Shown piece by piece: positions 17,799 to 59,351 of a stretch of 64,000 bases of DNA. The stretch comes from Armatimonadota bacterium. GTDB lineage: Bacteria > Sysuimicrobiota > Sysuimicrobiia > Sysuimicrobiales > Humicultoraceae. Under the pieces are notes generated by a model. The model ran no database searches, was not told the origin of the DNA, and saw only the letters and a program-made list of their open reading frames with translations. The translations under genes were made by a program, and so were the position numbers. Positions within the stretch are counted from its first letter, which is position 1. Each line of letters starts with the position of its first letter. Where the stretch lies: positions 30,481 to 94,480 of the forward strand of contig JBQTJP010000110.1 of the NCBI GenBank assembly GCA_052386995.1. The letters are read 5' to 3'.

Positions 17799-17799
17799 G

Positions 17800-18948: not shown

Positions 18949-19934
18949 ACGGGCGACGCGACGCGAATCTCATAGCCCCAGTGGGGCTCGCCGTCAACAA
19001 GCCTGGGGTCGATCTCCAGCCGCAGGCGCTGCCCGGCGCGAAGCCTCGGCTGCTCAAGCACGGGAAAGTACATCTGCGACCAGTTCGTCAGCGGCAGGCG
19101 CGGCGAGTTTGAGAGCGGCACACCCGGAGTGAGTACAGCGTCAAACCAGCCGAGGAACCCATCCAGTCGTCCCTCTCGCAGCACCGAAAATTCAAGGACC
19201 TCGGCGCCCGGCGCGCTGCCATCGCGGTGGTAATCCACGTGCCAGCAGCGGATCGGCTCTGCCAGCTCCACGAAGCGCTTTCCCGATGCCTGAACGGTCT
19301 CGGGTTCCTGATACAGCGCCCGGCGAAACAGCGAGTAGTCCCAACCATAGACGCGCTCTGGCATCCGCCCCAGGCCAAATTCCCCGGAGTGAACGGGCAT
19401 GAGGACCGTGTCAGACGATTCAGGAATGATCCGCGATCCCGGCTTCAGCATCCGCCGCCGCGCATCCGCCACGTACTCGATGATGTTCTCATTGTCGAAC
19501 CCACACGTGCTGAGCGTCTCGGTGACCAGGAGATCACCCCGTTCCGGCAGGTCTACGTGCCTCGAGTTCCCCCGGACGAGAATCACGCGGTCCCCGAGCC
19601 CGTTTTGCTCGATCAACTGCCTGGTCAGGTCCGCGATGGGACCGAGCTCTATCGCATACACGCGCTTCGCACCCGCCTGGACGGCAAAGAAGGAGAGCAG
19701 GCCGGTGCCGGCGCCCAGATCCACCACCACGTCCTGAGGACCCACCGTGCGCGCCAAAGCGTCACGGTACGCTTCGCAGCGCGCGGTATCGAGCAGCATC
19801 TTCTCCTGCATCTTCGGGCTGGCAAAGTTTTCGGCGACACGCAATTCGCGCAGGAGCGGCCAGTGGGCCGCGCGCTTGAGCACGCCGCGGAGCCTCCACA
19901 GCCCAGACGCCAGCAACCGTCGCGCCAGCCCCAT
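18945..19934 (-). CDS. PRMT-fold (protein arginine N-methyltransferase-like) SAM-dependent methyltransferase
   Basis: PRMT motif I (VVDLGAGTGLLSFFAVQAGAKRVYAIE), a double-E loop-like segment (GDLLVTETLSTCGFDNE), motif III (MLKPGSRIIPES) and a THW-like loop (PHWGYE). Confidence 0.65.
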   Translation of the reverse strand: MGLARRLLASGLWRLRGVLKRAAHWPLLRELRVAENFASPKMQEKMLLDTARCEAYRDALARTVGPQDVVVDLGAGTGLLSFFAVQAGAKRVYAIELGPIADLTRQLIEQNGLGDRVILVRGNSRHVDLPERGDLLVTETLSTCGFDNENIIEYVADARRRMLKPGSRIIPESSDTVLMPVHSGEFGLGRMPERVYGWDYSLFRRALYQEPETVQASGKRFVELAEPIRCWHVDYHRDGSAPGAEVLEFSVLREGRLDGFLGWFDAVLTPGVPLSNSPRLPLTNWSQMYFPVLEQPRLRAGQRLRLEIDPRLVDGEPHWGYEIRVASPV

Positions 19935-31704: not shown

Positions 31705-33030
31705 TTAGAGTCTTTCGAGCTGCGGCGTGGGGCGCGGCGGAAGGTAGGCGAGGAGCATAAAGATGAATGGCAGGAGTTGAGGGCGTTGCCGGGCGATGAT
31801 GGCGAAGTTGGAGATGCCCGAGAAGAAGAATGCGAACAACAAGATGAAGACGACGGCAAGCATCATGAACGCGTTCCCCGGCGCGGCGGCAACCGCGGCG
31901 GCGAGGCTCTTCCACTTCCTAAAGAACAGCAGAATGAGGAAGATGCCTTCCACCGCCGAGATCATCGCAAACGCGTTGTGGGCTTCCCACGGAAATGGCC
32001 GAAAGAACACGGTGCTGAGTCCGTCGACGAACGCGATTGGATTCGTGGGCACGACGCGATGGATCGCCGCCCCCCCGCGCTCGGTCCTCTCCTGACGGTC
32101 CTCGATGTAGCTGAGGACGCCGTCCGGCGTGAGATCATCGAGCTGGATGTAGCCCGCGGACGTTTGCACGACAAAGATGGCGACGACCGCGAACACCAGC
32201 ACTACCGCGATGCGCACCATGGGCGTCAACAGGCCGGCGCGTGCCGGCCGCCACACCGAGGCGGCCGCGACCGCCACGCCGATAATGCCCGCGACGTGCG
32301 GTCGAATCACCATGACGCCACCCAGACCGACGCCCATGATCACGAGGCTCGACAGCGCTATGCGTCGCATGAGCCGCGCCGCCCCGTAGGTCCCTAAGCC
32401 GAGGCAAAAGCACACGAGGGCGTCCTTCCCCAGGCTGCTCGTCCACAGCGCCATCGATGGGTACAGCATGATCAAATAGGCAAAAAGCCGGCGGTTGCCA
32501 TTGGGAACCGCGGTGACAAACGCCTTGTAAAAGAACAGCATGCCGAGCAGTCCGAGCCACGCCCAGAACACGAAGGCGCCGATGAGCGTGGGGCCGGTGA
32601 AGAGATAGAAGATTCCCGTGATGAGCGTGACCATATCCGTGCCGTGATAGTCGGTGATATCCGGCGAGCCCCCGGCCAGGATCGCCGCCGCCGCGCGGCT
32701 GCCGCCGCCGTGGTAGCCGACCGCGTCCGCAAAGCCGCCGTACTGATCGAAGATGAACCACAGACGAAACACGATCGCGCCGAACTTGAGGAACAGGGCC
32801 ACGATCAGCAGGCGGAACAGTAGCGTGCCTATTGGATCGTCTCGACTGGCCAGGTGGAAGATCACGAGCGAGGCCATGACCACGCCGGCAATGATCACGG
32901 CGGCCCGCATGCCCTCGATGTCTTGAATCGCGATGAAGCTGCCGATCACGCCGGCGATGGCCACAAAGACGATCCCGGGGCCCAATCGCTTTCCCACATT
33001 CGTTGAGTACGTGGACGTGCGCACGCTCAT
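31705..33030 (-). CDS. Polytopic membrane protein, probable Wzy-type repeat-unit polymerase (an O-antigen ligase-like function is not excluded)
   Basis: At least 10 predicted TM helices with a large loop. The start is MSVRTSTYS. It lies between the MT gene and the nucleotide-sugar dehydrogenase gene. Confidence 0.5.
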   Translation of the reverse strand: MSVRTSTYSTNVGKRLGPGIVFVAIAGVIGSFIAIQDIEGMRAAVIIAGVVMASLVIFHLASRDDPIGTLLFRLLIVALFLKFGAIVFRLWFIFDQYGGFADAVGYHGGGSRAAAAILAGGSPDITDYHGTDMVTLITGIFYLFTGPTLIGAFVFWAWLGLLGMLFFYKAFVTAVPNGNRRLFAYLIMLYPSMALWTSSLGKDALVCFCLGLGTYGAARLMRRIALSSLVIMGVGLGGVMVIRPHVAGIIGVAVAAASVWRPARAGLLTPMVRIAVVLVFAVVAIFVVQTSAGYIQLDDLTPDGVLSYIEDRQERTERGGAAIHRVVPTNPIAFVDGLSTVFFRPFPWEAHNAFAMISAVEGIFLILLFFRKWKSLAAAVAAAPGNAFMMLAVVFILLFAFFFSGISNFAIIARQRPQLLPFIFMLLAYLPPRPTPQLERL

Positions 33031-33077
33031 CGCGCGAATGCCTCCTTGAAAATCCCGGGAGCCCGGGCGCAGGCAGG

Positions 33078-34427
33078 CTACAGCCGAACGATCTTCGCTC
33101 GCCCCTCCGCGACCTCGCGGGTCGCGTTGCGCGTATCCATCACGAGCCGCGCGTTGCGCACGACCCAGCGATAGTCGACGCATGAGTGATCGGCCACGAT
33201 CATCACGCAATCCGCGCTTCGGAGCGCGGCCGCCGTCAGCGGCCGGCTCGCAAGCGAGTGCCCATTGACCGACAGCCTCGGCACGTAGGGATCGTGATAG
33301 CTGACTTTCACGCCGTGCTGGATCAGCAGTTGGATGATCTTCAGCGCCGGCGACTCGCGGTAGTCGTCGACATCTTTCTTGAAGGTGACGCCCAGCACGA
33401 GCAGGCGCACCGCGCCGGGACGATGCCGGTGACCGTTGAGAGCGAGGAGCGTCTTGGTGACGACGTGGTACGGCATCTCCTCATTGACCCGGGCCGCGAG
33501 CTCAATGAAGTCCATGTGAAAGTCGTATTCTCGGGCCTTCCAGGCCAGGTAATACGGATCGACCGGAATGCAGTGGCCGCCCACCCCGGGCCCGGGCTGA
33601 AATCGCAGAAATCCATAGGGCTTGGTCGCCGCCGCGTCGATGACCTCCCAGATGTCCAGCCCCATGCGGTCACACAGCATGGCCAGCTGGTTCACCAGGG
33701 CGATGTTGACGTTGCGGAAGACATTCTCGAGCAACTTGGACAGCTCGGCCGTCACCGATGAGGACACCGTCTTGACAGGCGTCCCGAGGGCGCCGAAGAG
33801 ACGCGCCGCGCGCCGTGTGCTCTCCGGGTCGACGCCGCCTACGACCACCGGCGTGTTCCGAATGGTGTAGTCCTGCCTTCCGGGGTCGACACGCTCCGGC
33901 ACGAAAGCCAGAAAGATGTCGCGCCCGACCGACAGACCGTGGGATTCCAGGATCGGCAAGACCAGTTCCTCAGTCGTGCCAGGGTAGGACGTGCTCCGCA
34001 AGATCACCAGCTGGCCGGGCCGGAGGTGCTCGGCAACGCCACGGGTGGCGCTGGCGATGCTCGACGTATCGGGTTGCTTGTTCGGTGTGCAGGGCGTCGG
34101 TACGCAGATGAAAATCACATCGGCGCGCGAGAGTCCCTCATAGGCCGTGTCGACCTTGAGACGACCGGAGGCCTGAACCGCGGCAATATCGGCCGCGGGC
34201 ACGTCGCCGACAGGCGACGAGTTGCTGAGCAAGGTGTCGATCCGCGCCGAATCGACATCGATTCCAAGCACGCGGAACCCTTCCTGGGCAAAAGCCACAG
34301 CCAGAGGCAGGCCCACATATCCGAGGCCGATGACCGCGATGTGAGCCTCTTTGGTCCGCACCAGGTCATTGAACTGCGCCGGCCTGGAGGCCTTCGATGC
34401 GGCATATTCGACAGTGGCTATCGTCAT
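33078..34427 (-). CDS. Nucleotide-sugar dehydrogenase (UDP-GlcNAc/ManNAc 6-dehydrogenase, WbpA/WecC-like)
   Basis: N-terminal GLGYVGLP Rossmann motif, a catalytic Cys region (GGHCIPVDP) and the UDPG_MGDP_dh C-terminal domain. Confidence 0.85.
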   Translation of the reverse strand: MTIATVEYAASKASRPAQFNDLVRTKEAHIAVIGLGYVGLPLAVAFAQEGFRVLGIDVDSARIDTLLSNSSPVGDVPAADIAAVQASGRLKVDTAYEGLSRADVIFICVPTPCTPNKQPDTSSIASATRGVAEHLRPGQLVILRSTSYPGTTEELVLPILESHGLSVGRDIFLAFVPERVDPGRQDYTIRNTPVVVGGVDPESTRRAARLFGALGTPVKTVSSSVTAELSKLLENVFRNVNIALVNQLAMLCDRMGLDIWEVIDAAATKPYGFLRFQPGPGVGGHCIPVDPYYLAWKAREYDFHMDFIELAARVNEEMPYHVVTKTLLALNGHRHRPGAVRLLVLGVTFKKDVDDYRESPALKIIQLLIQHGVKVSYHDPYVPRLSVNGHSLASRPLTAAALRSADCVMIVADHSCVDYRWVVRNARLVMDTRNATREVAEGRAKIVRL

Positions 34428-35761: not shown

Positions 35762-37360
35762 CTATCGGCCGTTCGCGGTACTCTCGGCCGGCGGCTGCGG
35801 CGAGCCCAACCAGTTGGCGACCACCGTGGCGGCATCCTGAATCCGCTCGGAGGCGCCGATGGGCACAGTGACATAGCCCCGGGCGATCGCCGCCCAGGCT
35901 GCGCCACCCATTAAGAGCAGCACAAACATGAAGGTAAACATCGCGGTCGCCGGCGCCGGGCGCGGTGTGCCGTGCGCCGGGATCTGCGCCAGGACCGGGA
36001 CGCCGAGCGCGCGCTCCGCGTCCTGTGCGGTACGGATGCGATCATCCATGGACTCGAGCAGCAGTGCCGCCAGGATGCCCAGGATCAGGCCCGCGAAGCC
36101 GGCGGCGGCTCCAAAGCGCGGGAACGCGGAGGGTTCTGCCCGCCCCGGTGCCACGGCGGCCTCGACCAGCTGCACACTCGCCGGTGAGAACCCGGCTTCA
36201 TTCTCGCGCAGCAAGATCTCCTGATACCGCGTGGACAGTAATGTGTAGTTGGCCTCCATGATCCGGTTCTCGCGGGCCAGCCGGTTGAACTCCACTTCCA
36301 CGGCCGGCACGATCGCGACCTGTCCCTGGCGGCGCCTCAGTGTGGACTGGAGCGCGGACACCCGCGCACTCACGGCTGCCTGCTCAATTTCCTGCGTCAC
36401 GATGTCGGCGACCAACCGGGCGTGAATCGGGTTGGTGGTGGTCACCTCTTCACCAACCATCGTCCGCGCCTCGGCTATGAGGCGATTGCGCACGTCGGCG
36501 ATCTCCCGGTTGAGGGCCTCCATGCGCGGATGCAGCGGTGTGTAGACCTGCGCCATCTGCGCGCGACGGAGCTCGAGTTCGATAATGTGGGTCTGGTACC
36601 GGCGGAAGGTCGGGTTCTCGGTCGTCGCCCGCCGCTCAACGATGCGCGGCTGCTCTCGCCCGAACCGTGCGCGGGCGGCCGTCAGGCGTGCGTCCGTCTC
36701 CATACGCGCCCGGTTGGCCGCGTCAAGCTCGACTTCGGCCGAGCGCATCGCCGAGAGGGCTCCGCCGCTCACGTCGGAGAGCGAGATGACTCGATTCCGC
36801 TCACGATAGGCCTGCAGTGCCCGTTCGGACTGTTCGAGCCGCGCACGGGACTGCGTCATTTGATCCTCAACAAACCGGCGCACCTCGCTGACGCTGTTCC
36901 GGTTCGCCTCTCGGAAGTACGCGATGAACTCCTCTGAGGCCACATTCGCCAGGCTCGCCGAGCGCTCGGCGTTGTTCGTCGTCGCCGTGATCCTCACGAG
37001 CGAGGTCCCGCGCTCCGGCGCGGCCGTGATAGCCCGCTGCACCGTATGCGGACCGGCCATGCCCATCCGCTTCGCTACCCGTGTCGCGATCGGGCGACTA
37101 TCGATCAGGGCCATGATGTCGCCAACGGTATTGTCATACCGGTTGAACACAGGCATCGCCTCGCGCGGCAGCACCGTCGGTGGGTTTACCACGACGGGCG
37201 ACGTCACCATCATCCGGGCGGTCGCCACGTAGCGGGCGGGGCGGCGGCCGATGGCCACGTAGGCAGCCCCGACGGCGATGATCGTGACAAGAATCACCAG
37301 CCAGAGGCGGTTTCGTACCGCCTGCCAGTACTGGCCTAATTCACTCGAATGTCCGCTCAT
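35762..37360 (-). CDS. Polysaccharide co-polymerase / chain-length determinant (PCP, Wzz/GumC-like)
   Basis: N- and C-terminal TM helices flank a long coiled-coil periplasmic region; 532 aa. Confidence 0.75.
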   Translation of the reverse strand: MSGHSSELGQYWQAVRNRLWLVILVTIIAVGAAYVAIGRRPARYVATARMMVTSPVVVNPPTVLPREAMPVFNRYDNTVGDIMALIDSRPIATRVAKRMGMAGPHTVQRAITAAPERGTSLVRITATTNNAERSASLANVASEEFIAYFREANRNSVSEVRRFVEDQMTQSRARLEQSERALQAYRERNRVISLSDVSGGALSAMRSAEVELDAANRARMETDARLTAARARFGREQPRIVERRATTENPTFRRYQTHIIELELRRAQMAQVYTPLHPRMEALNREIADVRNRLIAEARTMVGEEVTTTNPIHARLVADIVTQEIEQAAVSARVSALQSTLRRRQGQVAIVPAVEVEFNRLARENRIMEANYTLLSTRYQEILLRENEAGFSPASVQLVEAAVAPGRAEPSAFPRFGAAAGFAGLILGILAALLLESMDDRIRTAQDAERALGVPVLAQIPAHGTPRPAPATAMFTFMFVLLLMGGAAWAAIARGYVTVPIGASERIQDAATVVANWLGSPQPPAESTANGR

Positions 37361-39023: not shown

Positions 39024-39947
39024 TTGCGTCGGAACGTTGTCATCCTGGGCGGGGGGCCGGCAGGCCTGACCGCGGCCATTTACGCCGCCCGCGCCAACCT
39101 GGCCCCCGTCGTCATCGAGGGCGCCGAGGCCGGCGGCCAGCTTATGCTGACGACGCTGGTCGAGAACTACCCAGGGTTTGAAGACGCCATCATGGGGCCC
39201 GCACTCATGCTGGCCATGCGGAAACAGGCCGAGCGCATCGGGGTGGAGTTCATCACCGAAGACGCTACGGAGATCGCGCTGGGTCAGTGGCCGTTCGCAG
39301 TTGCCACGCAATCCGGCCGACGCGTCGACGCGCGGGCCCTGATTGTGGCCACCGGGGCTTCGCCAAGACTCTTGGGTGTGCCGGGCGAGGCGCGCCTGAT
39401 GGGTCGCGGGGTCTCCACGTGCGCCACGTGCGATGGCTTCTTCTTCCGAAAGAAGGATGTGGTGGTGGTCGGGGGCGGGGATTCGGCCCTGGAAGAGGCG
39501 CTTTATCTGGGCAACCTGGCCAAGTCGGTGACCGTCGTCCACCGACGCGATGCGCTGCGGGCCAGCAAGATCATGCAGAATCGCGCGTTCGCCCACCCGG
39601 CGATCGGCTTTGTGTGGAACTCGGTCGTCGAGGACATCCTGGGCGACGGGGTCGTTCACGGCGTTCTGCTGCGCGACCTGAAAACCGAGGAGCGTGCCGA
39701 GCGCACGACCGACGGCGTCTTCGTGGCCATCGGGCATATCCCGAACACCGCGCTCTTTCGGGGTCAGCTGGAACTCGACGGGCTCGGGTACATCAAGGTC
39801 CGTGATGGGTCATTGACAAGCGTAGAGGGTGTCTTCGCCGCCGGAGACGCCCACGATCATACGTACCGCCAGGCCGTTACCGCCGCCGGGTATGGATGCA
39901 TGGCGGCGATCGACGCGGAGCGCTGGCTCCAGGGGCAACCCGCCTAG
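39024..39947 (+). CDS. trxB: Thioredoxin-disulfide reductase
   Basis: FAD GGGPAG motif, CATC redox centre and NADPH GGGDSA motif. TTG start with an AGGAGGA SD. Confidence 0.9.
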   Translation: MRRNVVILGGGPAGLTAAIYAARANLAPVVIEGAEAGGQLMLTTLVENYPGFEDAIMGPALMLAMRKQAERIGVEFITEDATEIALGQWPFAVATQSGRRVDARALIVATGASPRLLGVPGEARLMGRGVSTCATCDGFFFRKKDVVVVGGGDSALEEALYLGNLAKSVTVVHRRDALRASKIMQNRAFAHPAIGFVWNSVVEDILGDGVVHGVLLRDLKTEERAERTTDGVFVAIGHIPNTALFRGQLELDGLGYIKVRDGSLTSVEGVFAAGDAHDHTYRQAVTAAGYGCMAAIDAERWLQGQPA

Positions 39948-40294
39948 GTCGCAGCGCTACTGGACTGGGCTTGCAGCGCGCCTTCTAGACGGCGCTTGAG
40001 CTCCTGCTTGGGCATGAAGCCGACGATCCGTTCGACCAGCTCTCCACCCTTGAACACGCCGAGCGTCGGGATGCTCATGATGCTGTAACGCATGGCCAGG
40101 CTCGAATTGTCATCCACGTCGATCTTGACGACCTTCACCCGTCCCGCGTACTCCACGGCCAACTCTTCGACGATCGGCGCCACCATCCGGCATGGCCCGC
40201 ACCATTCAGCCCAGAAGTCAACGAGCACGGGTAATTCCGCCTTGGTGACCTCCTGCTCGAATGTGTTCACCGTCACTGCCAAGAGCGTTGCCAT
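39944..40294 (-). CDS. trxA: Thioredoxin
   Basis: WCGPC active site. Its stop codon overlaps the trxB stop (CTAG). Confidence 0.85.
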   Translation of the reverse strand: MATLLAVTVNTFEQEVTKAELPVLVDFWAEWCGPCRMVAPIVEELAVEYAGRVKVVKIDVDDNSSLAMRYSIMSIPTLGVFKGGELVERIVGFMPKQELKRRLEGALQAQSSSAAT

Positions 40295-40390
40295 CCCAAT
40301 CCTCCTCACATGATTCGGCAGGCGGCCGCCCGATACGCGACAACCGCTCCCCACGGTAGGGTATTCCCCCTGGCGGGTCAATCGGACGTC

Positions 40391-40912
40391 TCAGGCAACC
40401 GCCAGCGCGATGACCAGCAGCAGGAGGAGGGCGGCGCTGCCAAAGCATCCCAGGCGGCGGCGCCCCTCGCCCGTTGCGGAGCGGAGCGCTCCACGCGCCG
40501 ACAGCCTGGTGGCCTTGCGAAGCGAGGCGATCGCCTCGCTCGTCCTACCCAACTGCTTGTAGAGCCCGCCCAGATTCTGGTGAGCCACCCAGTAGTCGGG
40601 ATCCGCGGCTACCGCCCTCTCGTACGCCTCCAGCGCCCGCTCGATGCGCCCCGTTTCTCTGTACACGTTCCCCAAGTTGCTCCAGGCGGGAGCGTATCGC
40701 GGGCTGACTTCAACCGCCCGCGCGAACGCTCCCTCGGCCTCGTCCAGCCGCCGCTGATGAGCCAGGGCCACCCCGAGCTTGCTGAATGCGACCGCCGAGG
40801 TGGGGTCGATCTCGGCCGCGCGTCGAAACGCGGCCTCGGCTGCGGGCCACTCTCCCGCGTCGAGATGCTTCTCTCCTTCGGCCAGCTGAGGTGCGGCCGG
40901 TGCATGCGCCAT
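40391..40912 (-). CDS. TPR-repeat protein with a C-terminal TM anchor
   Basis: Four TPR-like 34-mers and a hydrophobic tail (AALLLLLVIALAVA). Confidence 0.55.
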   Translation of the reverse strand: MAHAPAAPQLAEGEKHLDAGEWPAAEAAFRRAAEIDPTSAVAFSKLGVALAHQRRLDEAEGAFARAVEVSPRYAPAWSNLGNVYRETGRIERALEAYERAVAADPDYWVAHQNLGGLYKQLGRTSEAIASLRKATRLSARGALRSATGEGRRRLGCFGSAALLLLLVIALAVA

Positions 40913-40958
40913 TTGGGGTCAGAAGAGGTTTCTTCGGCGGCGACGTGTTGCCCTTCGG

Positions 40959-41405
40959 CTACGCGGCCTCCGTCCGGCGGGCGGCCGCCCACAGGGGAAG
41001 ATCGGCGTAGCGCGGACGCGGCCTCACGGCGACGGAGGCCGCCCTGGCCGCGCGCGCCATCGAAGAAGGTGGCAGGTGGCGTATCCTGGCCTGGTGGAAC
41101 ACGTTGAGCAGTGCCCGCACCTGCAGGTAGGGCCCGATGACGTCCGCCGACGGCTGTTCGGTCCCTTCGACCTGTGCAACGACCTCCGGAGCATCGAGGG
41201 CCAGGTCCACCAGCTTTGCGCCGGCGCGCCTGGCCTCCCAGAGCCCGAGGACCAACGCACGGTAACCGGCCGGCGTCGAGTCGTGCGGCTCTAAACATCG
41301 CACGATGGTCTTCGACTCGTCCTCGCCGTCCCAGCGCAAGACCGCGGCCACAGCCCGGCGTCCGTTCCAGTCGGCGGAAGCCGCGGCCACGTGCAGCGTC
41401 CTCAT
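40959..41405 (-). CDS. RNase H-like (RVT_3 / RNase HI-fold) protein
   Basis: Weak resemblance to the RNase HI family: a DxxG-like N-terminus (HVAAASADWNG) and the right length. Its start overlaps the upstream small ORF. Confidence 0.4.
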   Translation of the reverse strand: MRTLHVAAASADWNGRRAVAAVLRWDGEDESKTIVRCLEPHDSTPAGYRALVLGLWEARRAGAKLVDLALDAPEVVAQVEGTEQPSADVIGPYLQVRALLNVFHQARIRHLPPSSMARAARAASVAVRPRPRYADLPLWAAARRTEAA

Positions 41406-41611
41406 GGCCAGGGTACCTCGAGGGCCGCGGCGACCACCGCGGTGACGAGAAGAAGAACGATCTTGGCCCTGATCGCCCGCCGGTCATCGGCGAGCAACGC
41501 GCAGATTTGTATCCCCATTTCTGCGGGTGACCGTGTGGCCATCGGACCCAGCCGGCCGGCTGCGCAGCGCCGATAAGCGGTGTGGACGGTGAACGGTTCG
41601 GTTCGGATCAT
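41402..41611 (-). CDS. Small hypothetical protein with a C-terminal hydrophobic helix
   Basis: 69-aa ORF whose start overlaps the lexA stop (4 nt) and whose stop overlaps the RNase H-like start. It could be non-coding. Confidence 0.25.
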   Translation of the reverse strand: MIRTEPFTVHTAYRRCAAGRLGPMATRSPAEMGIQICALLADDRRAIRAKIVLLLVTAVVAAALEVPWP

Positions 41612-42234
41612 GACACACCGAGAGGGTAGCGTCGCAGCAATCCCACGACTTTCCCCAGGATCTCAAACTCGCCGGTGATCGGCCCGTACGCGGGGCTCTC
41701 CGCACGGAGAACCGGGCAATCCTCAGACATGTCGAGGCGCTTCACGGTCGCCTCGTCGCCAAGCAGCGCAACGACCAGTTCGCCGGGCGCAGCGGTGGGC
41801 TGACAGCGGACGATGACGAGGTCCCCGTCAAAGATTCCTGCGCCGACCATGCTGTCCCCCCGAACCGTCAGCAAGAAGCACTCCTCACTCCAGCCGACAA
41901 AACGCCGCGGGATTGGAATCATCTCTTCAACGTGTTCCTGGGCTAACACGGGCACTCCCGCGGACACGCGCCCCACCAGGGGCAGTGAGACGATCTCTGT
42001 ACCCTCATGGAATATATCCCGCCCGGTGATCTCCAAAACCCGCATCCTGTCGCCATCCCGACGCAGGTACCCCTTGCGCGCCAGAGCCGTGAGGTGCTGG
42101 TGGACAGTCGACGGAGATCGCATGCCCAAGGCGTGCCCTATCTCCCGGACAGACGGAACGATGCCAGAGCGCCGAATGCTGGAAGCGATGTGCTGCAGGA
42201 TCTCTTGCTGGCGATCAGTCAGCGGCTGAGCCAT
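41608..42234 (-). CDS. lexA: LexA repressor
   Basis: N-terminal wHTH, Ala-Gly cleavage site (VSAGVP) and S24 peptidase Ser/Lys (GDSM...KRL). Confidence 0.9.
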   Translation of the reverse strand: MAQPLTDRQQEILQHIASSIRRSGIVPSVREIGHALGMRSPSTVHQHLTALARKGYLRRDGDRMRVLEITGRDIFHEGTEIVSLPLVGRVSAGVPVLAQEHVEEMIPIPRRFVGWSEECFLLTVRGDSMVGAGIFDGDLVIVRCQPTAAPGELVVALLGDEATVKRLDMSEDCPVLRAESPAYGPITGEFEILGKVVGLLRRYPLGVS

Positions 42235-42261
42235 CGGTTCACCCCTCAGACGCTATAATAG

Positions 42262-42275
42262 CGAACATATGTACG
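42262..42275. promoter_or_regulatory. LexA operator (Cheo-box type) 1
   Basis: CGAACATATGTACG, one mismatch from the CGAAC-N4-GTTCG palindrome, 28 nt upstream of the lexA start. It overlaps a TATAAT-like -10. Confidence 0.7.
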
Positions 42276-42296
42276 TCATGGCAAGGTTATTGTATA

Positions 42297-42310
42297 CGAA
42301 CATATGTACG
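42297..42310. promoter_or_regulatory. LexA operator (Cheo-box type) 2
   Basis: Identical 14-mer CGAACATATGTACG, 35 nt from box 1. Confidence 0.7.
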
Positions 42311-42401
42311 CTATAAGGTGCCTGTACGACGGTACGCGTGATCTCGGGCCCGGACGCCTGTTTTCGCGCCCGCACGGGGCCGCGCGGCGTGTCTTGGGGG
42401 T

Positions 42402-43349
42402 TCAGCGGGTCTGCGACAGAAGTGCCGCGAGAAGACTCGGGTCGAGGTTGCCGCCGCTGATAACCGCGAGAGCAGGGCGTTGGAGGACGAGGCCGCCCAG
42501 GAGCGCCGCTACCGCGATCGCCCCGGATGGCTCGACCACCAGGTGGGCCTCGACACACAGGCGACGAACGGCATCGAGGATCCACTCATCATCCACGCTC
42601 ACGAACGCGTCGACGTATTGGGACGTAGCGTCCCATGTCAGCAGACCAGGCTGCTGCCCCCTGAGGCCGTCGGCGATGGTCGCGACCGACGGGACGGTCA
42701 CCCGTGTGCCCGCCGCACGCGAGGCCGCGAAGCGGGCCACGGATTGCGGCTCGGCCCCGATGACCTGGATCGACGGCCTTAGCGCCTTGATCGCGAGCGC
42801 GATCCCGGAGATCAATCCACCTCCCCCGGTCGGCACAACGACGGCGGAGACCTCCGGGCACTGATCGAGGATTTCCAATCCGCAGGTGCCCTGGCCTGCG
42901 ATCACCAGGGGATCATCGAATGACGGGACCAGGTGCAGCCCGCGCTCTTTCGCAAGCCGCGCGGCCAGGGCTGAGCGCTCCGGCATTGTCGTGCCGCACC
43001 GGATCATCTCCGCGCCGTAGCGAGCGATCCCCGCCTGCTTCAACTGCGTCACCGTCTCCGGGACCACGATGACGGCCGGCACGCCCACGCGCGAGGCCAT
43101 GTAGGCTACGGCCTGCCCGTGATTCCCTGACGATGCCGCAACGACGCCTTTGATCCCCGCGCCCATCGCCCGGAGATGATTGGAGGCACCACGCACCTTG
43201 AACGACCCGGTGGGCTGAAGGCTCTCGAGCTTCAGCCACAGGTCCGAGGCCTGATCCCAGGGGTGGATTGGAGTGCGCCGGACATCAGACGCGACGCGCG
43301 CCGCCGCAGCTCTAACCTCTGCAATCGTCGGAAGGATCCCGGCGCTCAC
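42402..43349 (-). CDS. PLP-dependent threonine/serine dehydratase (catabolic type, no ACT domain)
   Basis: PS00165-like SFKVRGA lysine motif and a glycine-rich loop (GGGGLISG). A GTG start is assumed near the gcvPB stop. Confidence 0.7.
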
Positions 43350-44824
43350 CCGCCGCGCCCGGGTGATCCGGGCGGCCGCCAGCGCAGATCTGGGCGCCGC
43401 GCGGCCGCGACCTCGTCGAGCCTGCTGACAACCGTTCGATGGGGGGCCGTGCGCACGGTCTCGGGATCTGAGGCGCACTCTTCGGCCACACGCATCATCG
43501 CGTCCGCAAACGCGTCGAGCGTCTGCCGGCTTTCGGTCTCTGTCGGCTCGATCATGATCGCCTCATCGACGATGAGCGGGAAGTAGATCGTCGGCGCGTG
43601 GAACCCGTAGTCCAGCAGGCGCTTGGCGATGTCCAGCGTCCGCACGCCGTGCCGTGTCTTCTGCCGCCGGCCCGACAGCACGAACTCGTGCATACACACC
43701 CGGTCGTAGGGGAGATCGAAGTACGGGCGGAGGCGCGCCAGCAGGTAGTTTGCGTTGAGCACCGCCGCCTCGGAGACCTGGCGCAGCAGCGGTCCGTAGG
43801 CTCGCAGATACGCGTACGCGCGCACGAGCACGCCGAAGTTGCCCGCAAACGCGCGCACGCGCCCGATGCTCTTCGGCCGATCGTGATCGAGACGGAATCC
43901 TTCGCCATCGCGTTCGACGATGGGGACCGGCAGGTACGGCTCCAGCCGCCGCTTGACGGCGACCGGTCCGGCCCCGGGGCCACCGCCGCCGTGCGGAGTG
44001 CTGAACGTCTTGTGCACATTCATGTGCATGACGTCGAATCCCTGATCGCCGGGCCGTGTGACGCCGAGCACCGCGTTGAAATTTGCGCCGTCGAGGTAGA
44101 GCAGCGCCCCACACCCATGGACGATCTCCGCCACTTCGGTGATACCTTCCTCGAACAGGCCAAGCGTGTTGGGATTGGTGAGCATCAAGGCCGCGACCGA
44201 CTCATCGGCCGCGCGGCGGAGCGCGGCGTGATCGATATTCCCCCGCGCGTCGCTGGGAACCGTCACCACCGTATAGCCGCACATCGCGGCGGAGGCCGGG
44301 TTGGTCCCGTGCGCCGAGTCGGGCACGATGACGCGTGTGCGGCGCTCGCCGCGGTCGTCGTGAAACGCCCGAATCATCATCAACGCCGTCAGCTCGCCGT
44401 GCGCGCCGGCGGCGGGCTGGAAGGTCACGCGGTCCATGCCACTGATCTCGCAGAGCATCTGCTCGAGATGCCACAGGAGCTCCAGCGCCCCCTGCGCCTG
44501 GGCGTCCGGCGTGTTCGGGTGCAGGCGCGCGAATCCCGGCAGCCGCGCCGCGTCTTCGTTGACCTTCGGATTGTATTTCATCGTGCACGAACCCAGGGGA
44601 TAGAATCCCGTGTCGATCGCGTAGTTGCGGTGCGACAGGCGCGTGTAGTGCCGGACGAGATCGGGTTCGCTCACCTCTGGTAGGGCCGCCGGATCGCGAC
44701 GCAGGTGGTCGGCGCCGACGATGTCCTCCAGCGGCACTTCGGGAACACCGGCATCGGGCAGCGAGGCGGCAATGCGCCCGGAGACGCTGTGCTCGAAGAT
44801 CAGAGGAAAGTTGGGGCCGGTCAC
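43346..44824 (-). CDS. gcvPB: Glycine dehydrogenase (decarboxylating) subunit 2
   Basis: PLP-lysine region ([16 protein letters not shown]); split P-protein. Confidence 0.9.
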
Positions 44825-54112: not shown

Positions 54113-54373
54113 TGTGAACAGCCTGTGGGCAATGCCCCCGTTATCAACATCTTTGCCTGGGGCCCGCCCATCCTGGCAGCGCCGCCGCGGTTCAATAGAG
54201 CAGCAGGCAGCCGCTTTGTCCACACCGCGATGCCAGTTATCCACACGATTCTCCACACCTGTGGACAACCCGAGAAACACGTATCAACGTTGTCATTGCG
54301 CCGGGCCTCTACGCCGCAGGAAGCCGGTACAATCGTGGAGAATTCTGCGCTCAACCGGCCTGAATTGTCCACA
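54113..54373. promoter_or_regulatory. oriC part 1: DnaA-box cluster between rpmH and the gene upstream of dnaA
   Basis: Perfect TTATCCACA at 54237-54245. One-mismatch boxes are TTATCAACA (54141), TTGTCCACA (54216, 54365 and reverse at 54260) and TTCTCCACA (54249). Weaker boxes are at 54113 and 54124. Confidence 0.75.
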
Positions 54374-55318: not shown

Positions 55319-56671
55319 GTGTCCATCGACATATCGCCCACCACGTTGTGGACGGAAGTCCTCCGTCGAATTGAAGGTCATCTTAACAAGCCCACGCTCG
55401 AGTCGTTCCTCAAAGTCATCAGACCCATCGGTCTCCAAGGCGACACGTTTGTGCTGGCCGTGCCGAATCGCTTTGCCCGCGACTGGATCGAGCAGCGCCT
55501 GCTTGTCACCGTGCGCGGCGCGTTGTCGGCAGCGATTGGCCGGGAGATCCAGGTGCAAATCACCGTGGCGGAGGTCCCGCCTCCGGCCGCTCCCGTTCGC
55601 GCGGCGCCGGCGCCTGCGGCGCCTCCGCGGACCACGGAAGGGCTGCACCTGTCGCCCAAGTACACGTTCGAGACGTTCATCGTAGGCGCCGGGAATCGCT
55701 TCGCACATGCGGCGGCGATGGCGGTGGCCGAATCCCCGGCGACATCCTACAACCCCTTGTTTATCTACGGTGGCGTGGGGCTGGGAAAGACCCATCTGCT
55801 GCAGGCAATCGGGCATGGCGTGCTGCGCCGGGCCGGTGTCGCGCGGGCAGCATATATCAGCAGCGAAAAATTTACGAACGAGCTCATTAACGCGATTCGC
55901 GACGACAAAACCCTTGAGTTTCGCCACCGGTACCGCAATGTCGACGTTCTCCTCATCGACGACATACAGTTCCTCGCCGGAAAGGAACGCACACAAGAAG
56001 AGTTCTTTCACACTTTTAACACGCTTCACGACGCCAGTCGCCAGATCATCATCACATCCGACCGCCCACCGAAGGAGATCCCGACCCTTGAAGACCGGCT
56101 GCGCAGCCGATTCGAATGGGGCCTGATCACCGACATCCAGCCGCCCGATCTGGAAACACGTATCGCCATTCTCCGCAAGAAGGCCGAAACCGAAGGGATT
56201 TCTGTGCCCGATGAAGTAGCCGAGTTTATCGCGCAGCGTATCTACACGAACATCCGCGAACTCGAGGGCGCCCTCGTACGTGTCGTCGCCTACGCATCAC
56301 TTACGCGGTCTCCTATCACCGTCGAACTTGCCGCAGACGTGCTGCGGGATCTGCTGCCTCCGACGCGTTCACGCATTGTGACCATCCAAGCTATTCAAAC
56401 AGCCGTAGCGGAATTCTTCCGAATTCGGCCAGAAGAAATGCGGGCGAAACGCCGCACAAAAGACCTAGCGTTCCCACGTCAAATTGCCATGTATCTGGCA
56501 CGAGAACTCACGGACGCATCGCTTCCCCGCATCGGTGAAGAATTTGGTGGGCGAGACCACACCACGGTCATCCATGCTTGTCAGCGGGTGCGCGAAACTC
56601 TTCGCGGTGACGCCCACCTTACAGCCAGCCTCAAACGACTGACCGAAGATCTTCAGCGACACAGTGGATAA
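55319..56671 (+). CDS. dnaA: Chromosomal replication initiator DnaA
   Basis: AAA+ Walker A (GGVGLGKTHLL), the DnaA signature and the C-terminal HTH. GTG start with an SD. Confidence 0.95.
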   Translation: MSIDISPTTLWTEVLRRIEGHLNKPTLESFLKVIRPIGLQGDTFVLAVPNRFARDWIEQRLLVTVRGALSAAIGREIQVQITVAEVPPPAAPVRAAPAPAAPPRTTEGLHLSPKYTFETFIVGAGNRFAHAAAMAVAESPATSYNPLFIYGGVGLGKTHLLQAIGHGVLRRAGVARAAYISSEKFTNELINAIRDDKTLEFRHRYRNVDVLLIDDIQFLAGKERTQEEFFHTFNTLHDASRQIIITSDRPPKEIPTLEDRLRSRFEWGLITDIQPPDLETRIAILRKKAETEGISVPDEVAEFIAQRIYTNIRELEGALVRVVAYASLTRSPITVELAADVLRDLLPPTRSRIVTIQAIQTAVAEFFRIRPEEMRAKRRTKDLAFPRQIAMYLARELTDASLPRIGEEFGGRDHTTVIHACQRVRETLRGDAHLTASLKRLTEDLQRHSG

Positions 56672-56877
56672 CCTGTGCATAAACATCAAAATGGACGAGA
56701 TTGAAAGCTACTCCTATTACAAGGGCATCTTTTATCCCCGTCCTAACCACAATAAGATTCACAGACTCATAAGCTCCACGATCCAAACAGAGTGGACTCT
56801 TTACTGGTTATCCACATCATCCACACCATCTACTACTACGACGGTTTTATTAATATAATATATAGAGGAGAATAACT
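56672..56877. promoter_or_regulatory. oriC part 2: dnaA-dnaN intergenic DnaA boxes plus an AT-rich DNA unwinding element
   Basis: Perfect TTATCCACA at 56808-56816, followed by TCATCCACA. A box also overlaps the dnaA stop (GGTTATCCACT, reverse). The AT-rich run TTTTATTAATATAATATATAG (56846-56866) sits in a genome of ~70% GC. Confidence 0.75.
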
Positions 56878-57987
56878 ATGTTCTTCACTTGTTCACACGA
56901 GCACCTTAATCGCGCGGTCGCTCTTGTTGGACGAGCTGTGTCATCGCGTGTGGCTATGCCCATTCTCAGCAATATTCTCATCGAGACAAAAAAAGATTCT
57001 GTGAAGTTTGCCGCTACGGATCTGGATCACGGGATTCAAACTGAGATTCCCGCGACAGTGAAAAAAGGCGGAGCCATCACCATACCAGCTCGGCTGTTTA
57101 CGGAAATTGTGACCAATCTTCCGAATGCGTCTATTGACTTTAAAGTGGCTGATAACGGACGAAACGTTGAAGTACAATGCGAACGTATAACGTACGATCT
57201 AGTCGGATTACCGGCCACCGATTTTCCGTTGATGCCGGAACCAGATTCAACACCTGTCGTCACGATCGAAGCTGGAGTATTGCGTACAATGGTTCGTCAA
57301 ACTAGCTTTGCGGTGTCAACAGACGAAACGCGGGTATTTTTAACTGGCTTGTACTTGGGCTTGGATGGCAAGGACGCTAAAGTGGTGGCTACAGATGGTG
57401 GACGATTGGCACTGCGGTCTGTGACACTGACATCTCCGAGCAGACAAAAGGTTGGAGTAATCATTCCCTCTAAAACCATGCAAGAACTCACACGGGCCCT
57501 GGCAGGTGTAGAGGGGGATGTAGATATCTCTTTAGCTGAGAACCAGATCCTGTTCACACTGCCGGCAGCTAGACTCGTCAGCCGGCTCATTCCCGGACCG
57601 TTTCCGAACTATCAGCAGGTCATTCCTCAAGGACACAAGCAGAAGCTGACGGTTGGAACGGAGCGGTTTATGAGTGCCGTTCGGCGTGTGGCAATTACGG
57701 CTCGGGACTCGGCCAATGTCGTGCGTCTGCAGGCGAACGCCGATACACTAACGCTCTCTTCCAGCACCCCGGAGTACGGTCGGTCTGAGGAGACTCTTCA
57801 GGTAACGGCCGAAGGAGAAACCGTCCCGACGGCCTTCAACGCACGCTATTTGCTCGATTGCCTGGGCATCGTGGAAGCGGACGAAGTGACGCTTGAGCTC
57901 ACGGGGCCGCTTAGTCCCGGAGCCCTTCGGCCCGTGGGACACACGGACTACACGTACGTGCTGGCGCCGGTTCGCGTTGCCACCTAA
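56878..57987 (+). CDS. dnaN: DNA polymerase III beta sliding clamp
   Basis: Typical DnaN three-domain sequence. Confidence 0.95.
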   Translation: MFFTCSHEHLNRAVALVGRAVSSRVAMPILSNILIETKKDSVKFAATDLDHGIQTEIPATVKKGGAITIPARLFTEIVTNLPNASIDFKVADNGRNVEVQCERITYDLVGLPATDFPLMPEPDSTPVVTIEAGVLRTMVRQTSFAVSTDETRVFLTGLYLGLDGKDAKVVATDGGRLALRSVTLTSPSRQKVGVIIPSKTMQELTRALAGVEGDVDISLAENQILFTLPAARLVSRLIPGPFPNYQQVIPQGHKQKLTVGTERFMSAVRRVAITARDSANVVRLQANADTLTLSSSTPEYGRSEETLQVTAEGETVPTAFNARYLLDCLGIVEADEVTLELTGPLSPGALRPVGHTDYTYVLAPVRVAT

Positions 57988-58273
57988 GCGATCCGGCGCG
58001 CCGTCTTCCTCCCGGGCACGGCGCGTCCCCATTTACACCGGAACGATTACGCTTGGTGCTTTCCTCAAGTGGGCCGGCATCACAAATACCGGAGGAGGGG
58101 CCAAGGCGCGTATTGCTGCGCGTTCCGTGTCTGTCAACGGCGTTGTCGAGCTGCGGCGAGGACGCCAGTTGGGGCCTGGAGACGTGGTGATGGTCGATGG
58201 GGGACCGATGTTGCTCGTCGTGAAAGGACACGATGCTGCGCCTGCGCCGCCTCTGGCTCCGGGCGTTTCGTAA
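57977..58273 (+). CDS. yaaA: S4-like RNA-binding protein (YaaA family)
   Basis: Aligns with B. subtilis YaaA (ITLGAFLKWAGI...GGGAKARI...VSVNGVVELRRGRQLGPGDVV). No canonical start lies just before the domain, so the TTG at 57977 is a guess. Confidence 0.55.
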   Translation: MPPKRSGAPSSSRARRVPIYTGTITLGAFLKWAGITNTGGGAKARIAARSVSVNGVVELRRGRQLGPGDVVMVDGGPMLLVVKGHDAAPAPPLAPGVS

Positions 58274-59351
58274 TTACGAGCGCGCCGATCTGACCGTCGG
58301 GCCCGGGATTACCGCCTTCGTCGGTCCGAACGCCGCGGGGAAATCCAATCTGCTGGAAGCGATTCACCTGGTGGCTACCGGACGCTCGCATCGAACGCTG
58401 CGCGAGGGCGAGGCGATCCGCCATGGCGAGACGAGCGCGCGCATCCGGGCCCTGGTGACACGACGCGGCCATGATGAGGATCTCGACATCACGCTTGTGG
58501 CTGAAGATGGACGGGAGCGCGTCCAGATGCGCGTCAACGGGGCTCCGATGCCCCGCAGTGGGGTGCTCGGCAGACTGCCGGTCGTTCTGGCGGCGCCGTG
58601 GGATCTGGATGTCGTCCGTGGGCCGGCGGGCGGCCGGCGGAGGTTGCTCAACGGCGCACTATCGCAGCTCAGTCCGGCCTATCATTTCGCCGTGCACCGC
58701 TATCATCGCGTGATCGCCCAACGGAACACCGTCCTCCGCCAACGATGGCCCGAAGGGTTGCAGCCGTGGGATGCGCAGATGATCACGCTGGGGGCTCGGA
58801 TCACGGCGCGGCGCGGCGAGTATGCCGGGCGGCTGGCTGCGGCTGCCCACAGGTGGTTCGAGCGTCTGGCCGGCGGGGGCTTTTTTCGGGTTGCCTATCG
58901 AGCGGCCTGGAGCGGAGGCGACGACGCGGAAATTGCCGAGACCGGACAGATGGAACTTGCCCGCTGCCGGGCCGATGAACTTCGGCGGGGGGTGAGTGTC
59001 ACCGGCCCGCACCGTGACGACCTCGAACTGACACTGGACGGTGCGCCGCTGCGCGCCTGCGGCTCGCAGGGAGAGTGGCGAGCGGCGATGCTGGCGCTGC
59101 GGTTGGCCGAGCGTGCCGTGATGGCGGAAGACCTCGGCGCGCCGCCGGTGTTGCTGTTGGATGATGCGCTTGCCGAGCTCGACGCCGGCCGGCAACGCCG
59201 CTTGCTCGAGACCGATGACGAGGCGCAGGTGCTGCTGACCGCTACCGAGCTGCCTCAGGCGGGGCCTTTGAAAGGCGCGCTGACGATCGTCACGGTGGAC
59301 CATGGACGCCTTGGTGAAGGAGTATGGTTACCCCAATTCGATCCATCCTGA
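58233..59351 (+). CDS. recF: DNA replication and repair protein RecF
   Basis: Walker A (GPNAAGKSNLLEA) and the SMC-like signature. Confidence 0.9.
   Translation: MLRLRRLWLRAFRNYERADLTVGPGITAFVGPNAAGKSNLLEAIHLVATGRSHRTLREGEAIRHGETSARIRALVTRRGHDEDLDITLVAEDGRERVQMRVNGAPMPRSGVLGRLPVVLAAPWDLDVVRGPAGGRRRLLNGALSQLSPAYHFAVHRYHRVIAQRNTVLRQRWPEGLQPWDAQMITLGARITARRGEYAGRLAAAAHRWFERLAGGGFFRVAYRAAWSGGDDAEIAETGQMELARCRADELRRGVSVTGPHRDDLELTLDGAPLRACGSQGEWRAAMLALRLAERAVMAEDLGAPPVLLLDDALAELDAGRQRRLLETDDEAQVLLTATELPQAGPLKGALTIVTVDHGRLGEGVWLPQFDPS

Follow-up and report, generated by a model that had tools for sequence, protein, structure and literature searches.

In Gram-positive bacteria, the division inhibitors induced by the SOS response are small proteins of the membrane whose genes adjoin lexA and which have no mutual sequence similarity (PMC6851548). 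For example, YneA of Bacillus subtilis, SosA of Staphylococcus aureus, ChiZ of Mycobacterium tuberculosis and DivS of Corynebacterium glutamicum are all small, single-pass, LexA-controlled, lexA-adjacent and lineage-specific. Further SOS division inhibitors are SidA of Caulobacter and that of the lexA-sulA operon of Pseudomonas, and YneA, SosA and SidA represent a functional class, not a sequence family. Escherichia coli has the type I SOS toxins TisB and DinQ, pore formers or depolarisers with promoters of their own and antisense RNAs. Here we describe a locus in which lexA is followed by a small open reading frame (sORF) of 69 amino acids (aa), which resembles YneA, SosA, ChiZ and DivS in all these respects, and by a gene for an RNase H-like protein (rnhL). 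It lies in a 64,000-nucleotide (nt) stretch, hereafter the window (GenBank assembly GCA_052386995.1, contig JBQTJP010000110.1, positions 30,481 to 94,480 of the forward strand). Those relatives that bear a name are Candidatus (Ca.) Fervidifonticultor, assigned by NCBI taxonomy to Ca. Sysuimicrobiota (formerly phylum CSP1-3); many of these metagenome-assembled genomes, including the source of the window, carry the label Armatimonadota at NCBI. The regulatory architecture of the locus, and the co-expression of sORF and rnhL with lexA, appear highly probable from the features of the window and its relatives set out below.

The gene order, all on the minus strand, is a PALP enzyme gene, a 167-nt spacer, lexA, sORF, rnhL, a 46-nt spacer, a tetratricopeptide repeat (TPR) gene and a thioredoxin gene (trx), and the array is closed by a convergent thioredoxin reductase gene. 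Relatives comprised 21 close ones, obtained from a scan with one genome per species, and further loci gathered by look-ups that started from other genes of the cluster. Operators were scored with a position weight matrix (PWM) built from 37 operators of related loci, and protein models were made with AlphaFold2 (AF2). The central features are:

42297-42310, minus strand: putative distal LexA operator, exact match to CGTACATATGTTCG, PWM 27.5 bits, just upstream of the -35
42262-42275, minus strand: putative proximal LexA operator, exact match to CGTACATATGTTCG, PWM 28.7 bits, filling the -35/-10 spacer
42255-42284, minus strand: predicted sigma-70-type promoter, -35 TTGCCA at 42279-42284, 18-nt spacer, -10 TATTAT at 42255-42260
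42242-42247, minus strand: Shine-Dalgarno sequence GAGGGG, 7 nt before the lexA ATG, read directly
41608-42234, minus strand: lexA, 208 aa (open reading frame list, Pfam, NCBIfam)
41402-41611, minus strand: sORF, 69 aa (open reading frame list, alignments, ratio of nonsynonymous to synonymous substitutions, dN/dS)
41408-41506, minus strand: conserved 33-aa C-terminal module of sORF, I36-W68 (alignments, dN/dS, hydropathy, AF2)
40959-41405, minus strand: rnhL, 148 aa, RVT_3/RNase H-like (Pfam PF13456, AF2, Foldseek)
40989-41003, minus strand: C-terminal peptide D135-L-P-L-W139 of rnhL, behind a variable Ala-rich linker

The 14-mer CGAACATATGTACG is present in exactly two copies in the window (42262-42275 and 42297-42310), 35 nt apart from start to start, and both copies are CGTACATATGTTCG when read on the lexA (minus) strand; the two identical boxes upstream of lexA reported in an earlier note on this DNA are thereby borne out as exact matches. 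That note had further let the boxes overlap a -10-like element. Their association with the promoter stands, but the overlap does not: the spacer contains the proximal box in full, and this box stops 1 nt short of the -10, which it merely abuts. The lexA promoter is the sole sigma-70-like site in 39800-42700, where 0.2 such sites are expected from shuffles. With the -35/-10 spacer taken up entirely by the proximal operator, LexA bound there should keep RNA polymerase off this promoter.

The same plan recurs at about 37 related loci, where the lexA promoter consists of TTGnnn, 2-3 nt, a CG[TAG]AC-N4-GTTCG box and (C)TATnnT, plus a second box upstream, and where the flanking DNA diverges while the -35/box/-10 layout stays. 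The distance between the operators is 31-56 nt in these relatives (100 nt in one, L050), with one spacing class of 34-36 nt (24 loci) and another of 54-56 nt (8 loci); since the two classes lie about 21 nt apart, i.e. about two helical turns, the helical phase between the operators is kept. In every case the half-sites are asymmetric and point in the same direction relative to lexA, with GTAC promoter-distal and GTTC promoter-proximal. Autoregulated lexA promoters such as that of E. coli likewise possess two operators, one of which overlaps the core promoter, and the operator found here is a 14-bp pseudo-palindrome; what distinguishes the present promoters from known tandem-operator lexA promoters are the asymmetric half-sites, CGTAC...GTTCG, and the two spacing classes. 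The cyanobacterial LexA box has been given as RGTACNNNDGTWCB (PMC3091678), which CGTACATATGTTCG, compared by eye, matches at 13 of 14 positions. Compared with the Cheo box of Gram-positives (CGAAC-N4-GTTCG), CGTACATATGTTCG possesses one Cheo half-site and one GTAC half-site, the latter as in the cyanobacterial box; the motif thus stands between the two boxes, and the designation 'Cheo-type' given to it earlier is about right.

These features support the reading of the boxes as LexA-type operators in an autoregulated lexA promoter. The assignment to LexA follows from position, conservation and resemblance only, because the sequence reached contains no further SOS gene such as recA or uvrA. A PWM scan of the window and about 390 kb of related loci yielded no site of at least 20 bits outside lexA promoters. 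A third box-like site, TGCGTACAATGGTTCGTC, with 19.4 bits, lies at 57281-57298 inside the dnaN coding region; the DNA there is AT-rich and one shuffle in 20 exceeded this score, so that the site was judged a chance occurrence and rejected as an operator. No SOS box for Sysuimicrobiota/CSP1-3 is described in the searchable literature, and the CSP1-3 genome papers mention at most the presence of LexA and RecA.

The 208-aa protein is, by its domains and motifs, a canonical self-cleavable LexA. It matches TIGR00498 at 1.2e-58, its 198 bits exceeding the cutoff of 111, and it contains the domains LexA_DNA_bind (PF01726, 1.5e-22) and Peptidase_S24 (PF00717, 1.4e-28). The cleavage site VSA92-G93VP and the dyad of Ser128 (GDSM) and Lys165 (TVKRL) were aligned by motif with A84-G85, S119 and K156 of the E. 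coli protein.

Start of sORF and stop of lexA overlap by 4 nt (ATGA), and so do the start of rnhL and the stop of sORF. The former overlap, with ATG or GTG as the sORF start, was found in 19 of the 21 loci examined and again in L005, L028, L029, L031 and L032, the overlap in L033 being 10 nt; sORF and rnhL stand next to each other as a pair in all loci, at a distance of -13 to +20 nt. About 17 independent loci that were reached from rnhL or sORF instead of LexA show lexA-sORF-rnhL once more, and the arrangement is kept where the upstream flank has switched from gcv/PALP to lactamase_B/luciferase genes. The translational coupling of sORF and rnhL to lexA in nearly all relatives implies shared LexA control wherever lexA stands upstream. 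At the level of reading frames, the overlaps indicate that LexA, sORF and rnhL are translated from one message by termination-reinitiation. Neither an internal promoter nor a convincing terminator was predicted within the cluster, consensus scans being weak tests, and no Rfam family was found in 39500-42800. A terminator-like hairpin at 41455-41478 within sORF was dismissed as chance (1 found, 1.0 expected), its T-run consisting of Leu and Val codons of the transmembrane segment.

The pair also exists with neither lexA nor a box, at three loci of the most divergent subclade: L030 (identical with L049; 3786-4456), L045 (1406-2205) and L052 (1-683). The pairs of L030 and L052 sit between unrelated genes (PhoU/APH, phosphoesterase). 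Hence the invariant unit is sORF plus rnhL, and the attachment to lexA is dominant, not obligatory.

That sORF is a real gene can be read from several properties of its sequence. Wherever a related locus spans the lexA-rnhL interval, the frame is open and carries the same module at its C-terminus, the copy in L005 being only 34 aa long. Within the 33 module codons dN/dS amounts to 0.17-0.56 (Nei-Gojobori, unsaturated pairs), and G+C at third codon positions (GC3) exceeds that at second positions (GC2) in the sORF frame only. A search with the single sequence retrieved 2 homologues and an alignment-based search 58, all annotated as 'hypothetical'. Conservation and a coding signature such as Ka/Ks were what the earlier note had named as tests of this frame, and the homologues and the dN/dS values agree with a coding gene. 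The NCBI annotation of the window gives sORF as 46 aa, starting from the internal Met24. A frameshift fusion of LexA and sORF, whose frame is open far into lexA at some loci, was considered and dropped, as DNA with 66% GC can be expected to hold long open stretches in alternative frames; a slippery site was not looked for.

The module consists of a juxtamembrane W.R[FL].DDR..[IV]..K, about 14 hydrophobic residues and a terminal LE[VR][PV]W (LEVPW in the window), and D43, K50 and E65 are invariant in the alignments. By contrast with this module, the N-terminus varies from 0 to 70 aa across relatives, is rich in Arg, Ala and Pro and is predicted to be disordered. The AF2 model displays one continuous helix over residues 29-65, with a predicted local distance difference test score (pLDDT) of 76-96. 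Hydropathy places a transmembrane segment at residues 51-67 (Kyte-Doolittle, KD, 2.48), which confirms the C-terminal membrane helix noticed earlier, and there is no N-terminal signal. The single helix, the hydropathy peak and the missing signal lead us to read sORF as a tail-anchored membrane microprotein with a predicted basic cytoplasmic N-terminus.

The protein encoded by rnhL matches Pfam RVT_3 (PF13456) at 1.9e-7 and NCBIfam RNase HI models weakly. Its AF2 model reaches a pLDDT of 91.9, and its best Foldseek matches are archaeal-type RNases HI (4e19, 3hst and 3aly) with template modelling (TM) scores of 0.7-0.8 at 17-23% identity, E being 1e-9 for 4e19 and 3hst. It shares its fold with Halobacterium RNase H1 (4e19), the N-domain of Rv2228c (3hst) and the Sulfolobus tokodaii enzyme (3aly), but differs from them in that the catalytic residues are missing and a conserved C-terminal DLPLW is added. 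The catalytic columns were read from a profile alignment to Rv2228c together with column counts over 27 family members; an hhalign comparison of the family with E. coli RNase HI covered only 19 columns and was set aside. The four positions are:

first Asp (E. coli D10): A7/A8 in the window, never Asp in 27/27
Glu (E. coli E48): G47 in the window, G, A, V, T or S and never acidic in 27/27
third Asp (E. coli D70): D71 in the window, D/E in 25/27
fourth Asp (E. coli D134): R118 in the window, D/E in 15/27

The TNN substrate-binding motif is likewise absent. With the catalytic Glu and the first Asp missing from all 27 members, rnhL is by its sequence an RNase HI-fold pseudo-enzyme which cannot be a two-metal nuclease. 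Inactive RNase HI homologues are known elsewhere, e.g. YpdQ of B. subtilis. Of the nuclease-fold protein that had been predicted for this position, the fold therefore survives, but not the nuclease.

What is conserved in rnhL instead are the motifs LWEARR.GA (R59 invariant) and YLQVRALL (L94 and R97 invariant), as well as the C-terminal DLPLW, whose L, P, L and W never vary (27/27) and whose D is present in 26/27. The tail that carries this peptide is of low confidence in the AF2 model (pLDDT 55-67). When 1.84 billion representatives were searched exhaustively with a profile, only about 50 clusters matched rnhL through the tail, and the hits beyond these were generic RNase H domains; as far as this search reaches, the family is small and clade-restricted. 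An origin of the pair from a phage or a defence system was rejected: PADLOC and PHROGs returned no matches for sORF or rnhL, and the genes around the pair (gcv, trx, dnaA, dnaN) are those of a chromosome.

The neighbours of this core are:

42402-43478, minus strand: PALP enzyme gene, upstream neighbour of lexA
40913-40958, minus strand: rnhL-TPR spacer, 46 nt
40391-40912, minus strand: TPR gene, 173 aa (Pfam)
39944-40294 (about), minus strand: thioredoxin gene trx (PF00085 at 1.1e-30, synteny)

The TPR protein contains about four TPRs (Pfam TPR_1, 3.5e-27) and a C-terminal transmembrane segment at residues 156-172 (KD 2.76), without an N-terminal signal. The TPR gene and trx follow rnhL in nearly all loci, at a distance between rnhL and TPR that extends from 31 to 2750 nt in relatives and sometimes includes inserted genes. 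The earlier note had drawn overlapping stop and start codons through the whole array and had assigned all three frames downstream of lexA to the LexA regulon. Both statements hold for sORF and rnhL, with their 4-nt ATGA overlaps and coupling to lexA, whereas TPR begins 46 nt past the rnhL stop, so that the first fails for it; of the arrangement whose conservation was to be checked, sORF-rnhL is kept as such and TPR in synteny, at variable distance. Given the missing overlap, the varying gap and the occasional insertions, the TPR gene is only a candidate member of a LexA-controlled operon.

The rnhL-TPR spacer of the window and its equivalents in L001, L003, L004, L005, L008 and L029 have no Shine-Dalgarno sequence. 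They carry a conserved C(G/A)(C/A)AGGGC-N13-CG(C/A)AGAA with half-motifs about 21 nt apart, which the short spacers share as GCAGGGC-N13-CGCAGAAG; this motif may be the site of a regulator, or else a promoter in its own right that is used alternatively. In one soil subclade (L017 7470-7694, L018, L019) an extra small open reading frame, MAIGNLEIRMAHLEGAYEQ..., with a coiled-coil and a C-terminal transmembrane segment, is found between rnhL and TPR. All TPR orthologues with an aligned tail have an R-x-G-C-L-G with a conserved Cys directly before the C-terminal transmembrane segment (40397-40460 in the window), and this Cys together with the adjoining thioredoxin and thioredoxin reductase genes is suggestive of a link to redox functions. 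The conserved lexA-sORF-rnhL-TPR-trx block ends with trx, which probably has a weak promoter of its own; a TTGACC-17-TACCGT was read by eye in the spacer before it.

As a whole, the locus is best explained as an autoregulated SOS operon of Ca. Sysuimicrobiota (CSP1-3) with the sORF-rnhL pair as a checkpoint module, an explanation for which we see an even chance. Upon DNA damage, RecA-stimulated cleavage of LexA at A92-G93 would derepress the promoter, whereupon sORF and rnhL would rise with LexA in a fixed ratio. The pair would be the membrane-located DNA-damage checkpoint of this lineage and would act via protein-protein contacts, with no catalysis. In such a module sORF would be the effector or anchor, similar to the single-pass division inhibitors adjoining lexA (YneA, SosA, ChiZ, DivS, SidA), and rnhL would serve as an adaptor that docks, by means of its DLPLW tail, onto a partner able to bind peptides. 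This partner might be sought among the beta clamp, FtsZ-tail-binding proteins and the neighbouring TPR protein, and the last may also modulate the module in a DdcA-like manner. Taken by itself, a checkpoint function of sORF-rnhL, i.e. a delay of division or replication, is a tentative proposal from analogy that falls somewhat short of an even chance. It is favoured by the analogies with lexA-adjacent inhibitors and with DdcA-YneA and by the likeness of DLPLW to the clamp motif and the FtsZ tail.

With regard to the first of these analogies, sORF agrees with the YneA/SosA/SidA class in size, membrane location, LexA control and position. It departs from YneA-type inhibitors in that it lies downstream of lexA and is coupled to it, whereas theirs are divergently transcribed; in that it is tail-anchored, with scarcely any extracytoplasmic part and with neither a LysM nor an extracellular domain; and in that it is always paired with a pseudo-RNase H. 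Of the two, only the YneA-type inhibitors have a known division phenotype. As for the second analogy, the intracellular TPR protein DdcA antagonises the small membrane checkpoint protein YneA in B. subtilis (10.1101/391730). DdcA (YsoA) is partly membrane-associated and acts on a small membrane SOS protein, and the TPR protein of the window is like it in the generic repeat only: DdcA has 334 aa and no tail anchor and is encoded elsewhere (near tig).

The docking analogy concerns the peptide itself. Clamp-binding motifs are pentapeptides of the QL[SD]LF or QLxLxL type in flexible regions. The beta-clamp motif of M. tuberculosis ImuB is 352-QLPLWG-357 (PMC10421592); QLPLW and DLPLW have four of five positions in common (LPLW), with D in rnhL where clamp motifs have Q. 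Similarly, FtsZ's C-terminal tail, DYLDIPAFLRKQAD, binds FtsA, ZipA, MinC and others (PMC4117426), and it shares with DLPLW the pattern D-[IL]-P-x-aromatic (DIPAFL in FtsZ), rnhL having Ala in place of FtsZ Leu378. Like docking peptides, DLPLW sits on a flexible tail behind a variable linker. A more specific form of the proposal, which we regard as rather improbable, is that sORF holds the dead RNase H at the membrane, that DLPLW mimics the FtsZ tail or the clamp motif and titrates FtsA/SepF or the beta clamp, and that the TPR protein is the antagonist; Z-ring anchoring would then be blocked, or replication paused, until LexA re-represses the operon. A tblastn search of 449 kb of the window and related loci found none of FtsZ, FtsA, SepF, SSB, DinB and DnaE.

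Several points weigh against the checkpoint proposal. It is argued by analogy, from gene position and protein shape only, and all sequences are from metagenome-assembled genomes of uncultivated bacteria. Being co-translated with LexA, sORF would be made in undamaged cells as well, which is hard to reconcile with an inhibitor that is neither antagonised nor turned over. The pairs that lack lexA and a box suggest that the function of sORF-rnhL does not strictly need LexA control. DLPLW deviates from both of its models, with D for the conserved Q of the clamp motif and Ala at the critical Leu378 position of FtsZ. In L002 (6827-6925), rnhL is reduced to a 32-aa remnant, in which the first strand and ...PLWVAAAS are kept and beside which sORF and TPR are intact; the reduction reflects a deletion in frame or else an artefact of assembly. 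Finally, with its own conserved spacer motif and its variable distance, the TPR gene may be an independent unit.

Some of these observations would suit the possibility that sORF, rnhL, TPR and trx are passengers, i.e. membrane or redox housekeeping genes which merely share the lexA transcript or its synteny and have no role in DNA damage. E. coli dinF is an example of a gene that shares the lexA transcript. A passenger status would agree with the pairs devoid of lexA or a box in L030/L049, L045 and L052, with the conserved Cys beside the transmembrane segment of a TPR protein always encoded near trx/trxB, and with the conserved motif of the rnhL-TPR spacer. Nevertheless, the 4-nt overlap of lexA and sORF is kept across lineages that have no more than 53-60% identity in LexA and a different upstream flank (PALP/gcv changed to lactamase_B/luciferase), and such tight coupling is unusual between unrelated genes; we hold this alternative to be unlikely.

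The same coupling could point to feedback within the SOS system. Overlapping genes often encode interacting proteins, and sORF or rnhL, stoichiometric with LexA, might bind LexA or RecA and tune cleavage or the filament after the logic of RecX, DinI or PsiB. The conserved coupling to lexA would fit, and so would a non-catalytic rnhL with conserved surface arginines (R59, R60, R97) and a docking peptide. Yet sORF-rnhL pairs exist without lexA, a membrane anchor is not expected of a LexA or RecA modulator, and the Pfam and NCBIfam scans revealed no similarity to RecX or DinI, which makes such regulators decidedly improbable.

The earlier note had instead thought of TisB/DinQ-like logic, according to which sORF would be an SOS-induced, membrane-depolarising toxin that promotes dormancy. 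With TisB and DinQ it shares that it is small, hydrophobic and LexA-controlled, but it differs in that neither a separate promoter nor an antisense one was seen on either strand in the consensus scans, which are weak tests, nor an RNA element among the Rfam families, and in that its translation is coupled to that of LexA and would hence be constitutive. Moreover, its single transmembrane segment is an ordinary one flanked by the invariant K50 and E65 and preceded by a conserved charged juxtamembrane motif, and it is always paired with rnhL. The TisB/DinQ-like logic does not fit, and we consider a toxin very improbable. That rnhL is an active, SOS-induced RNase H which clears R-loops or primers after damage is scarcely credible, since its RNase HI fold and its matches to RVT_3 and, weakly, to NCBIfam RNase HI stand against a Glu48 column of G/A/V/T/S in 27/27, a first Asp that is never D, an Arg at the fourth position in the window and the lack of TNN.

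Elsewhere in the window, we observed a replication origin. DnaA boxes TTATCCACA (at most one mismatch) number 13 against 3.5 expected, and they cluster, with six upstream of dnaA and four in the dnaA-dnaN spacer (54141-54373, 56663-56825). In the origin region, 56600-57200, GC drops down to 44%, and the cumulative GC skew has its minimum at about 56.8-57.2 kb. With a GC3 of 0.54, dnaN is atypical in composition among the genes measured, the others having 0.67-0.85; the AT-rich 5' half of dnaN continues the origin region. The genes are:

55319-56671: dnaA
56878-57987: dnaN
58233-59351: recF

At 1102-24255 lies a gene cluster for the biosynthesis of a polysaccharide, in which two genes are flippase-like (Polysacc_synt_3) and one encodes a GT4 glycosyltransferase, and several large open reading frames without a Pfam match are located at 3303-5294, 17752-18975, 31705-33210 and 35762-37360.

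LexA autoregulation is textbook knowledge, and the lexA promoter described here is ordinary in this respect. For the uncultivated phylum Sysuimicrobiota/CSP1-3 it is the first description of an SOS operator and promoter architecture, and the PWM can be used for mapping the regulon. A phylum-wide, coupled cassette of lexA, a microprotein gene and a pseudo-RNase H gene is not described in the searchable literature. If sORF is a checkpoint effector, the rule that the inhibitor adjoins lexA would extend to a new phylum and to a co-translated arrangement, and the pseudo-RNase H with its invariant docking peptide would exemplify an enzyme fold recycled as an SOS adaptor.

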